Source of the DNA: a virus
Lineage: Duplodnaviria; Heunggongvirae; Uroviricota; Caudoviricetes
IMG/VR virus record: IMGVR_UViG_2698536657_000013
Coordinates: 1-5,110 of that record
DNA length: 5,110 nt
Reading direction: 5' to 3' (one strand)
Part shown: piece after piece, positions 3,091-5,110 of the stretch
Position numbering within the stretch: the stretch's first letter is position 1
How the letters are laid out: each line of letters starts with the position of its first letter
The notes under the pieces: generated by a model
Database searches by the model: none
What the model was told of the DNA's origin: nothing
The model's input: only the letters and a program-made list of their open reading frames with translations
Position numbers and translations under genes: made by a program

Positions 3091-3834
3091 ATGACACAGA
3101 CTGAATCAGCGATTCTGGCGCATGCCCGGCGGTGTGCGCCAGCGGAGTCGTGCGGCTTCGTGATAAGCACCCCGGAGGGCGAACGGTACCAGCCCTGCGT
3201 GAATATCTCCGCAGAGCCGGAGGCGTATTTTCGTATTGCACCGGAAGACTGGCTGCAGGCACAGATGCAGGGGGAGATTATGGCGCTGGTCCACAGTCAT
3301 CCCGGTGGTCTGCCCTGGCTGAGCGAGGCTGACCGGCGGCTGCAGATAAAGAGTGCCCTGCCCTGGTGGCTGGTCTGCCGGGGCGACATTCACCGGTTCC
3401 GCTGTGTGCCGCACCTGACCGGACGGCGCTTTGAACACGGTGTGACGGACTGTTACAGCCTGTTCCGGGATGCATACCATCTGGCGGGGATAACGCTGCC
3501 GGATTTTGTGCGTGAGGATGACTGGTGGCGCAACGGCCAGAACCTGTACCTGGACAACCTGGCGGACAACGGCTTTTACCGGGTGTCTCCGTCCTGTGCA
3601 CAGGCGGGCGATATCCTGCTGTGCTGCTTTGGTTCATCGGTGCCGAATCATGCCGCCATTTACTGTGGCAACGGTGAACTGCTTCACCATATACCTGAAC
3701 AACTGAGTAAACGGGAGAGGTATTCTGAAAAATGGCAACGACGAACGCATTCTGTCTGGCGTCACCGCCACTGGTCCGTATCTGCCTTCACGGGGATTTA
3801 CAACGATTTGGTCGCCGCATCAGCCTGTATGTGA
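3091..3834 (+). CDS. Tail tip assembly protein K (lambda gpK-like); JAB/MPN (JAMM) metalloprotease-like domain plus NlpC/P60 domain
   Basis: ATG at 3091 (MTQTESAILAHARR...), 11 nt after the L stop. The ORF-track start at 2830 overlaps L in another frame and is rejected. JAMM motif HSHPGGLPWLSEAD (H-x-H-x7-S-x2-D) starts at nt 3292. NlpC/P60-like Cys (GVTDCYSLF) and His (VPNHAAIY). Overlaps the I gene by 103 nt as in lambda. Start is uncertain: lambda's own K annotation is shorter, so a later start is possible. Confidence 0.85.
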   Translation: MTQTESAILAHARRCAPAESCGFVISTPEGERYQPCVNISAEPEAYFRIAPEDWLQAQMQGEIMALVHSHPGGLPWLSEADRRLQIKSALPWWLVCRGDIHRFRCVPHLTGRRFEHGVTDCYSLFRDAYHLAGITLPDFVREDDWWRNGQNLYLDNLADNGFYRVSPSCAQAGDILLCCFGSSVPNHAAIYCGNGELLHHIPEQLSKRERYSEKWQRRTHSVWRHRHWSVSAFTGIYNDLVAASACM

Positions 3835-4412
3835 ACACGGCAGCGGAGGCCATCCGTGCCCTGTCGCTGCAGGTGCCGGGATTCCGCGGTCAGATGAACG
3901 AAGGCTGGTATCAGATACGTATTGCCGGTGAGGATACCGCGCCGGAGGCGGTGTATGCCCGTCTTCATGAGCCACTGAGCGGGAGGGCCGTGATTCATAT
4001 TGTACCGCGGCTGGCCGGAGCCGGGGGAAATGGTGTTTTTCAGGTGGTGCTGGGGGTTGCAGCGATTGTCGGGTCATTTTTCACTGGTGGTGCAACACTG
4101 GCGGCATGGGGCGCAGCCCTGAGTGCCGGAGGGCTGACTGCCACCACGATGCTGTTCTCACTGGGTGCCAGCATGATACTGGGTGGTGTGGCTCAGATGC
4201 TGGCCCCGAAGGCAAAGACGCCGGAGTATAAAAGTACGGATAACGGTAAACAGAACACGTATTTTTCGTCACTGGACAACATGATTGCCCAGGGTAACCC
4301 GATGCCGGTGCCTTACGGTGAAATGCTGGTTGGTTCACGACGGATATCCCAGGATATCAGCACCCGTGATGAGGGCGGAGACGGGAAAGTGGTGGTTATC
4401 GGGCGGGGATAA
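3732..4412 (+). CDS. Tail assembly protein I (lambda gpI-like; N-terminal ubiquitin-like beta-grasp domain)
   Basis: 226-aa ORF MATTNAFCLASPPLVRICLHGDLQRFGRRI... with gpI-like blocks (YQIRIAG, VIHIVPR.AGA, Gly/Ala-rich hydrophobic segment, GKQNTYFSSLDNM.AQGN, YGEM.VGSR). Starts inside the 3' end of K. Stop TAA at 4410-4412. Confidence 0.9.
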   Translation: MATTNAFCLASPPLVRICLHGDLQRFGRRISLYVNTAAEAIRALSLQVPGFRGQMNEGWYQIRIAGEDTAPEAVYARLHEPLSGRAVIHIVPRLAGAGGNGVFQVVLGVAAIVGSFFTGGATLAAWGAALSAGGLTATTMLFSLGASMILGGVAQMLAPKAKTPEYKSTDNGKQNTYFSSLDNMIAQGNPMPVPYGEMLVGSRRISQDISTRDEGGDGKVVVIGRG

Positions 4413-4451
4413 AAATAAAAAAAATCCCGCAGAGTTAGTGGAGCTGCGGGA
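4411..4451 (-). terminator. Rho-independent terminator, minus strand (cassette A)
   Basis: Read on the minus strand: stem TCCCGCAG / CTGCGGGA (4425-4451, 8 bp, 11-nt loop) followed by a U-run (plus-strand A-tract 4411-4424). The U-run abuts the stop codon of I, so it is convergent with the tail operon. Confidence 0.6.
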
Positions 4452-4509
4452 AATAACGATGAAGATTAATGTTATGGAGTTATTTTTTTGGGCAGAAAAA
4501 CATTAACGC
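4411..4509 (-). ncRNA. Putative small RNA, cassette A (about 100 nt, minus strand)
   Basis: Bounded by minus-strand -10 TATAAT (plus coordinates 4516-4521) and the terminator at 4411-4451. No convincing ORF with an RBS. Body contains A-rich runs and the pyrimidine motif AACUCC. Ends with a U-tail. Start is estimated, not mapped. Confidence 0.3.
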
Positions 4510-4542
4510 AGCGAAATTATAAGCGCTACATGGATTTTGCGA

Positions 4543-4564
4543 AAATGTGAAGAAATTCAGAAAT
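4543..4564. promoter_or_regulatory. CRP-like box (AAATGTGA-agaaat-TCAGAaat) upstream of the minus-strand -10 of cassette A
   Basis: Matches the CRP consensus AAATGTGA-N6-TCACATTT with one half-site mismatch (TCAGA). The 5' T of TGTGA is 25 bp from the minus-strand TATAAT, placing the site centre roughly 41-45 bp upstream of the predicted start (class II-like). Confidence 0.35.
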
Positions 4565-4640
4565 TTTTTGCTGCAGAGGTGCAGGGAGCTTGCCGGGTAT
4601 CTGTGGCAGAAGACAGAAAACATCATGCCGGGGTTAAGGG

Positions 4641-4676
4641 ATAAAAAAATCCCGCAGAGTTAGCGGAGCTGCGGGA
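4641..4676 (-). terminator. Rho-independent terminator, minus strand (cassette B)
   Basis: Same 8-bp stem (4650-4657 / 4669-4676) followed on the minus strand by 7 U (plus-strand A-run 4643-4649). Confidence 0.6.
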
Positions 4677-4740
4677 CAGAACCGATGAAGATTAACGTTC
4701 AAGGAGTTTTGTTTTTATTGACCCGAAAAAACTGTAACGC
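4641..4740 (-). ncRNA. Putative small RNA, cassette B (about 100 nt, minus strand)
   Basis: Bounded by minus-strand -10 TATCAT (4747-4752) and the terminator at 4641-4676. Body shares AACUCCUUGAACGUUAAUCUUCAUCG with cassette A. Confidence 0.3.
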
Positions 4741-4773
4741 CCCGGAATGATATCTGCCATGGGGACGCACAGG

Positions 4774-4795
4774 AAATGTGAAGAAATTCAGACTT
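4774..4795. promoter_or_regulatory. CRP-like box, cassette B
   Basis: AAATGTGA-agaaat-TCAGActt. Same 25-bp offset to minus-strand TATCAT (4747-4752). Confidence 0.35.
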
Positions 4796-4877
4796 TTTCT
4801 GTCGCAGGTTTACAGAACGGATTACCGCCGGGGTACCAGTGGCGTAAATGAGCCGGATGTTGTGGTGCGGCTGAAGC

Positions 4878-4917
4878 AAAAAAATCTCCCGTAATATCGC
4901 CGGATACTGACGGGAGA
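4878..4917 (-). terminator. Rho-independent terminator, minus strand (cassette C)
   Basis: Stem TCTCCCGT / ACGGGAGA (4885-4892 / 4910-4917) followed on the minus strand by 7 U (plus-strand A-run 4878-4884). Sequence differs from A and B but pairing is fully preserved. Confidence 0.55.
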
Positions 4918-4980
4918 CGAATAGTCACCTTAAGGAGGTCTGATAATTATTGCTTTTATTGAGCAAAAAAACTGTAACGC
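4878..4980 (-). ncRNA. Putative small RNA, cassette C (about 100 nt, minus strand)
   Basis: Bounded by minus-strand -10 TATAAT (4987-4992) and the terminator at 4878-4917. Body contains ACCUCCUUA, identical to the 16S rRNA anti-Shine-Dalgarno sequence. Confidence 0.3.
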
Positions 4981-5013
4981 TGCATCATTATAGCGGCTAC
5001 AGGCAATTGCCGG

Positions 5014-5035
5014 AAATGTGAAGAATTTCAGAAAT
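5014..5035. promoter_or_regulatory. CRP-like box, cassette C
   Basis: AAATGTGA-agaatt-TCAGAaat. Same 25-bp offset to minus-strand TATAAT (4987-4992). Confidence 0.35.
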
Positions 5036-5051
5036 TTTATTCCGTCATGAC

Positions 5052-5083
5052 ACAGGCACCCTCCGGGGTGCCTGTCGTTTTCT
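5052..5083 (+). terminator. Rho-independent terminator, plus strand
   Basis: ACAGGCACCC (5052-5061), loop TCCG, GGGTGCCTGT (5066-5075), then cgTTTTcT (5076-5083). Perfect 10-bp stem. The T-run is modest (4 T). Confidence 0.5.
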
Positions 5084-5110
5084 GGCATAAACAGATTCAG
5101 ACATCAGACA

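Follow-up and report, generated by a model that had tools for sequence, protein, structure and literature searches.

Between the tail genes I and J of a lambdoid prophage from pathogenic E. coli lies a non-coding array in which one CRP-like box recurs upstream of three minus-strand promoters, at a constant distance from the -10 hexamer. The arrangement raises the question of what these promoters transcribe, which factor reads the box, and from what position it acts. The genes concerned are relatives of PasB, which is among the most interaction-rich accessory sRNAs of EPEC and for which no control of transcription has been published; neither a promoter, nor CRP, nor a transcription start is discussed in the two reports that describe it (PMC8550237; 10.64898/2026.05.13.724894). 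A conserved operator with a concrete candidate ligand would supply a testable route to the signal that controls PasB.

The I-J gap and its cassettes

The window (the whole 5,110-nt stretch of DNA analysed here) is the tail region of a prophage of this kind and is 99.6% identical to NZ_CP045712. Its genes run in the order H (the end only), M, an OmpC-like porin moron (1018-2172), L, K, I (3831-4412, plus strand), about 700 nt of non-coding DNA, and J, the start of which lies some 16 nt beyond the end of the window. The moron, which is on the plus strand between tail genes M and L, encodes 384 aa annotated as 'porin OmpC', and is flanked by an AT-rich region upstream (830-1017) and by a terminator of its own near 2344-2368. 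The I-J intergenic gap is occupied by the cassette array and, between the J-proximal box and J, by a terminator-like GC-rich hairpin followed by CGTTTTCTGG (5052-5075, plus strand), which is kept beside the J-proximal cassettes in most related loci. An Rfam search of the window returned no match, even at E values of up to 1.

The non-coding stretch consists of three tandem repeat copies (A, B and C, in order of coordinate), spaced by 231 and 240 nt, and each of these cassettes is a self-contained minus-strand sRNA gene. Read on that strand, the layout is an A-tract, a TCTGA-N6-TCACA box, 24 nt, a -10 hexamer, 6 nt, the motif GCGTTA and approximately 95-105 nt, with a GC-rich hairpin and then a U-run at the 3' end; when folded, the predicted RNAs resemble typical sRNAs with intrinsic terminators. 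The predicted sRNA A (4417-4509, minus strand) has its terminator hairpin at 4425-4451, followed by the U-run, and its start is placed at the G of the conserved GCGTTA, 7 nt past a -10 hexamer TATAAT (4516-4521, minus strand), with a -35-like TTCGCA at 4538-4543 and a 16-bp spacer. The predicted sRNA B (4642-4740, minus strand; terminator hairpin 4649-4677, then a U-run) follows a -10 hexamer TATCAT (4747-4752, minus strand), and the predicted sRNA C (4877-4980, minus strand) follows TATAAT (4987-4992, minus strand); cassettes B and C are without a good -35, and an extended -10 is absent from every cassette. Cassette C has its promoter and 5' end (GCGUUACAGUUUUUUU) in common with A and B, the shared part of the transcript being its first 16 nt or so, whereas its terminator (4884-4918) is unlike theirs and its body (…CAGACCUCCUUAAGGUGAC…) is also different.

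Two further features of the array concern possible RNA pairing. In sRNA A (4417-4509, minus strand), a pairing of the 5' end, GUUAAUGUU, with AACAUUAAU of the presumed seed (z = -3.7) could mask the seed; this pairing is absent in B and in the PasB of E2348/69. A CA-rich stretch, CACCACAACA (window 4856-4866, minus strand), in the interval bounded by the cassette C terminator and the cassette B box, resembles GcvB target sites but lies outside the predicted transcripts.

Relationship to PasB

PasB is an Hfq-dependent, Northern-validated sRNA of EPEC E2348/69 (Pearl Mizrahi et al. 2021, PMC8550237; Zhu, Shabalina and Storz 2026 preprint, 10.64898/2026.05.13.724894), annotated on the minus strand of NC_011601 at 1466343-1466261 in prophage PP6, and is embedded in phage structural operons (10.64898/2026.05.13.724894). 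It occupies the I-J gap of PP6, with the architecture of the cassettes in the window: antisense to the tail operon, with the box, the 24-nt spacing, TATAAT and the GCGTTA start. On alignment, A, B and the single VT1-Sakai cassette are PasB homologues over their whole length, and the terminator of cassettes A and B matches the PasB Northern probe. A and B are thus members of the PasB family as defined by a minus-strand gene in the I-J gap with similarity in seed and terminator. Cassette C resembles PasB in promoter, 5' end and general layout only; its body and terminator differ. Hfq-dependent expression is known for the E2348/69 gene and is putative for the three copies in the window.

Other prophage sRNAs were considered and set aside. 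AgvB and AsxR occupy the PR' moron site and are unrelated in sequence, so that an AgvB-type anti-sRNA identity is rejected; HnrS (EcOnc10-12) is found between the lysis genes and terminase in Sakai Sp12 rather than between I and J, and svsR is located at the 3' end of cI.

The box and its match to CRP

The window contains TGTGANNNNNNTCAGA at exactly three places, plus-strand positions 4546-4561, 4777-4792 and 5017-5032. For TGTGA-N6-TCAGA, 0.01 occurrences are expected by chance and none of 200 dinucleotide shuffles reaches three; the three boxes are paralogues of one repeat, however, and therefore count as one independent event. The preliminary description regarded this as the best-conserved block of the repeat, at a fixed offset from the -10, and in both respects it was right: AAATGTGAAGAA(A/T)TTCAGA, including the AAA flank, is the longest invariant run in the cassette alignment, and the T of TGTGA lies 25 bp from the minus-strand -10 in all three cassettes, corresponding to the 24-nt spacer. 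Cassette B, which it called degenerate, is less so than claimed, having a -10 (TATCAT) that matches at five of six positions with A2 and T6 kept. The -35 elements, all described as poor, are indeed so in B (TTCCTG) and C (TTCCGG), each matching at 2/6 positions, but not in A, where TTCGCA matches at 4/6 with a 16-bp spacer and the promoter scan gives a score of 10/12.

The strength of the CRP match was assessed with a symmetrised weight matrix, for which the classical set of 18 CRP promoters supplied 23 sites. These sequences were checked for internal consistency only: all 18 promoters came to 105 nt, and the site positions yielded CRP-like 22-mers except for one shifted by 1 nt and one that was cut by the start of its sequence and omitted. 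The 22-mers score 16.1 bits in cassette A (4543-4564, minus strand; AAATGTGAAGAAATTCAGAAAT on the plus strand, with TCTGA-ATTTCT-TCACA as the box on the sRNA strand), 15.8 bits in cassette B (4774-4795, minus strand; AAATGTGAAGAAATTCAGACTT) and 16.3 bits in cassette C (5014-5035, minus strand; AAATGTGAAGAATTTCAGAAAT), compared to 16.2 for lac, 17.1 for tnaA, 12.2 for galE and 24.0 for a perfect consensus. In leave-one-out scoring with this matrix, the boxes outscore 21 of the 23 classical sites. A score of at least 15.8 bits has a probability per position of 1.2e-6 in uniform random sequence and 1.8e-6 at the composition of the array, and no other 22-mer reaches the box score among 436,000 background positions of related phage DNA. 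The claim of a CRP-consensus match is thereby borne out as statistically strong and lac-like: it was to be abandoned if the matrix scored the boxes no better than shuffled sequence, and only 0.1% of dinucleotide shuffles of 4413-5110 attain the box score. Against the CRP-site consensus AAATGTGATCTAGATCACATTT the boxes match at 14 of 22 positions; the one important mismatch lies in the right half-site, where position 18 is G instead of C, and this G is itself invariant. K-12, for which CRP ChIP data exist, probably has no PasB-type locus.

Conservation across the family

So that the sampling should not depend on the box, I-J junctions were gathered by searching with protein I in IMG/VR and in one genome per species, and two DNA-pattern scans were added to this set. 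An HMM built from the spacer, -10 and 5' end only, with the box left out, recovered 199 family copies in 53 distinct contexts; the exact TCTGA-N6-TCACA is present in all but two of these, one being a contig end and the other a weak chance match. Both pentamers are invariant in 59 of the 59 unique family modules sampled, as are the TTT after the pentamers and an upstream A.AAAA, whereas the central spacer varies and takes at least seven forms (ATATCT, ATTTCT, AATTCT, AACTCT, GTTTAT, ATTTAT and TTTTCT, the last from a diverged four-cassette array), in which T at position 4, mostly C at position 5, and T at position 6 are conserved. Invariant half-sites around a varying centre are as expected for a dimer site of the CRP type. 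The spacer from box to -10 is 24 nt in 56 of the 59 modules and 23 nt in three; most of its columns contain three or four different bases despite the fixed length, and the sRNA bodies carry indels. The gap between the -10 and GCGTTA is always 6. Taken together, the constant half-sites, the variable centre and the fixed spacing point to a protein-binding operator held in register with the core promoter.

The -35 position is variable. In 32 of 56 unique promoters the box is closely followed by TTCACA (5/6, with a 16-bp spacer), and the abundant B and C types have a poor -35. Given this variability, the poor hexamers of the B and C types and the lack of an extended -10, something upstream must compensate. 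EHEC and EPEC prophages, and Stx1, Stx2 and non-Stx phages alike, carry an identical box, an argument for a ligand that is encoded by the host rather than specific to a phage.

Arrays in the loci sampled hold between one and four cassettes per I-J gap. In a set of 80 IMG/VR loci chosen by protein I similarity, 61 have one cassette, three have two, one has three and 15 are box-less; among complete E. coli genomes, 724 of 5426 (approximately 13%) match the I-J array region, and 80% or more of the three-cassette array is present in 84. In 13 of the 15 box-less loci the PasB-like body is kept and the entire promoter has been replaced by a minus-strand sodC-like gene, making these loci natural promoter-less or re-wired PasB copies. 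The replacement (in our loci L010, L019, L027, L033, L039, L042, L044, L048, L050, L051, L054, L064 and L070) removes the box, spacer, -10 and first transcript bases and leaves the body and terminator; the incoming gene encodes a Cu,Zn superoxide dismutase-like protein, has its own terminator, and joins at …CTCTGA|GTTAATGTTTTT.

Several individual loci are unusual in other ways. The four-cassette array (L304, positions 780-1530 on the reverse strand of IMGVR_UViG_2728369607_000007) is contained in one I-J gap and has more diverged boxes (TCTGA-ATTTAT/TTTTCT/GTTTAT-TCACA), -10 hexamers of CATAAT or GTGCAT, and bodies of both the PasB and the C type. In another locus (L300, near 5763, reverse strand), an IS629-like end (TGAACCGCCCCGGGAATCCTGGAGACTAAAC…) follows directly after the -35 of a PasB-type promoter, the box being intact. 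Identical lambda-like I genes with 68% identity to the query (L087-L100 and others) come from assemblies of Neobacillus, Pseudomonas, Shewanella, Bradyrhizobium, Enterococcus and others, and a PasB-type cassette is found on a 'Streptomyces flavalbus' contig (L085); these I genes and this cassette look like phage or E. coli DNA contaminating the assemblies.

Promoter geometry

If the -10 occupies -12 to -7 and transcription begins, as predicted, with the G of GCGTTA, the box extends from -52 to -37 and its centre falls at -44.5. The preliminary description had likened the geometry to that of class II promoters, in which CRP takes over the -35 contact. Here 24 nt separate TCACA from the -10, compared to 21 in galP1 (centre -41.5) and 20 in deoP2 (centre -40.5). 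The resemblance fails on this count, the predicted centre being -44.5 rather than -41.5, and the 22-mer overlaps the -35 hexamer position by only 1 bp, which would leave CRP beside sigma region 4 and not in its place. The hexamer itself ranges from poor in B and C, through 4/6 in A, to 5/6 in 32 of the 56 unique family promoters. A displacement of 3 bp corresponds to a rotation of about 100 degrees, making the AR2 and AR3 contacts of class II impossible.

The predicted position departs from published spacing rules. Hollands et al. 2010 (PMC2859248) place the CRP sites of class I promoters at -61.5 or farther from the start, and describe those of class II promoters as 'usually centred at -41.5'; CRP near -50 activates 'only very weakly', and moving the site to -44.5 in the sigma-28-dependent aer promoter abolished activation (PMC2859248). 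A periodicity of approximately 10.5 bp has been confirmed, with even -40.5 behaving erratically (Forcier et al.), and, so far as the account in PMC2859248 and the work of Gaston 1990 as cited there extend, -44.5 matches no known position from which CRP activates a sigma-70 promoter. Counted from the predicted start, the box is likewise not at -61.5 or helical turns upstream of it, as class I would have it.

Other assignments of the core promoter do not restore a canonical distance. The published 5' end of PasB, which derives from read coverage, lies 15 nt downstream of the predicted start and, if adopted, would place the box at about -59.5; no -10 hexamer is found where such a start would need one, and we treat this end as a coverage artefact or a processed end. 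A search for an alternative -10 at 21 nt from the box, the distance that would rescue class II, found none, the candidates being GCTTAT, CGCTAT and AGATAT. The TTCACA inside the box was rejected as a -35, its 24-bp spacer being too long. A plus-strand promoter for J that uses the box was also rejected: the sole -10-like sequence, CATAAA (5086-5091), is without the final T, and the box is equally conserved in internal cassettes with a different plus-strand context.

Published expression data

CyaR and McaS are activated by CRP, and Spot 42 (Spf) is repressed by it. PasB reaches higher levels in overnight static LB cultures than in mid-log DMEM, and its published RIL-seq chimera counts are 258 in DMEM and 1820 in LB. 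Spf moves in the opposite direction to PasB (7925 in DMEM, 387 in LB) and CyaR rises as PasB does (4299, 7362), but McaS falls (903, 211), from which it follows that the comparison does not discriminate for CRP control; growth phase, oxygen and medium differ between the two conditions at once. The published expression is compatible with control by CRP without being diagnostic, and neither confirms nor excludes it.

What reads the box

Judged by its conservation and placement, the box is best regarded as a conserved, position-fixed upstream operator of the sigma-70 promoters of the PasB family. Of the factors compared, CRP-cAMP alone has a specificity that the box matches, and the match is a strong one. 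We therefore tentatively consider host CRP-cAMP, acting in a non-canonical manner, to be the best candidate ligand, with a probability of roughly 0.4. The CRP-cAMP dimer would be bound at about -44.5, directly abutting the -35 position, where the AR2 and AR3 contacts of class II would be unusable; it might help to recruit RNA polymerase by other means, for example through an AR1 contact with alpha-CTD combined with bending of the DNA, and its contribution would be greatest where the -35 is weak, as in cassettes B and C.

Several properties of the family tell against CRP. Besides the predicted centre at -44.5 and the invariant G at position 18, where CRP prefers C, most of the promoters are near-consensus (TTCACA-16-TATAAT) and should not need an activator, and the conservation of the upstream A-tract and of N6 positions 4-6 is not explained by CRP. 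The box and A-tract might instead together form a CRP-independent promoter element, either UP-like or the activator site of another host factor, a reading that we regard as a serious rival, though a somewhat less probable one. Such an element would span about -60 to -34, which is the place of UP elements, and the invariant A.AAAA and T-rich sequence at -60 to -52 fits the distal half AAAWWT. It would also cover conserved bases beyond those that CRP reads, among them the non-consensus C in TCTGA, and it suits promoters that mostly look strong by themselves. The position of -44.5, although wrong for CRP, is normal for activators that abut the -35; lambda cI at PRM, for instance, activates from just upstream of the -35. 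On the other hand, invariant G and C in an element that should tolerate A/T are unlike the minor-groove selection of alpha-CTD, and only 7 of the 14 specified positions match the UP consensus NNAAAWWTWTTTTNNNAAANNN, which describes an A/T-rich sequence at -59 to -38, the distal AAAWWT fitting and the proximal subsite not.

As for another host factor, none of the other E. coli factors compared fits the box, whereas the CRP match has P ~1e-6. Comparison by eye with consensus sequences gave no fit to FNR (TTGAT-N4-ATCAA), to LexA (CTG-N10-CAG, where the box has CTG-N10-CAT), or to TyrR, GalR, Fis, IHF, sigma-54, sigma-E or the P2 Ogr dyad; for Cra/FruR, a TGAAAC half is confined to the VT1-Sakai variant, and the bases that carry the information coincide with variable positions. 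Among the IMG/VR matches listed, the box is confined to the PasB family and unrelated chance matches, which gives no sign of a dedicated regulon.

The mosaic structure of the modules might instead indicate that the box is kept mainly as a recombination joint between exchangeable cassettes, with no regulatory role of its own. Upstream-flank types, N6 variants and spacer classes are indeed combined in several ways; in the B-type spacer class, two flank types and two N6 types are found in all four pairings. Arrays of two to four cassettes exist as well. We think this very unlikely as an explanation, since it accounts neither for invariant pentamers around varying bases, nor for the fixed distance to the -10, nor for a CRP match at P ~1e-6. 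The original proposal, that of a canonical class II CRP promoter in which the -35 is replaced and the array is switched on under carbon limitation, has in its favour the strength of the motif, the poor -35 of cassettes B and C and the higher level of PasB in LB than in DMEM, but a gap of 24 nt compared to 20-21 in deoP2 and galP1, the resulting centre of -44.5, an overlap of only 1 bp with the -35 position, the lack of an alternative -10 at 21 nt downstream of the box and a 5/6 -35 in the majority of family promoters make it highly improbable.

Implications and comparison with known systems

If host CRP-cAMP does act on these promoters from -44.5, the geometry would fall outside the scheme of class I and class II, and the family would offer a natural test case for the spacing rules. 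Control by CRP, if true, would connect riboregulation by prophages of EHEC and EPEC with carbon status. In the tandem arrays, one promoter module is reused with different sRNA bodies, which bears on how prophage sRNAs diversify. That a single host signal, cAMP-CRP from -44.5, switches on a whole array of riboregulators with different seeds through the invariant operator they share is a further reading, but a decidedly unlikely one.

The class II promoters galP1, melR and deoP2 resemble the cassettes in having a site of the TGTGA-N6-TCACA type near the core promoter and, in some cases, a weak -35; in those promoters, however, the site is centred at -41.5 or -40.5 and replaces the -35, whereas the cassette box, with its predicted centre at -44.5, abuts it. 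A precedent for CRP activating from a non-standard position is provided by the aer promoter, with CRP at -49.5 and sigma-28 (PMC2859248), although aer depends on sigma-28 and its shorter promoter, and the cassettes have a -10 of the sigma-70 type. UP elements such as that of rrnB P1 are similar to the box in being A/T-rich, conserved, located at -60 to -38 and able to offset a weak -35, but the invariant pentamers of the box, which contain G and C and are arranged in dyad symmetry, are atypical of UP elements, and the consensus match is partial.

Among sRNA genes, CyaR, McaS and Spf would follow the same logic as the cassettes, namely an Hfq-dependent sRNA with a promoter that reads cAMP-CRP. 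Those three belong to the core genome and their control by CRP has been shown experimentally; the cassettes are prophage-borne and tandemly multiplied, and their control by CRP is predicted. The PasB of E2348/69 has a seed region similar to those of the cassettes (…AACUCCUU..A.UUAAUCUUCAU…) and a similar terminator, and the window differs in presenting three cassettes in tandem, where Pas genes are typically single per prophage (10.64898/2026.05.13.724894).
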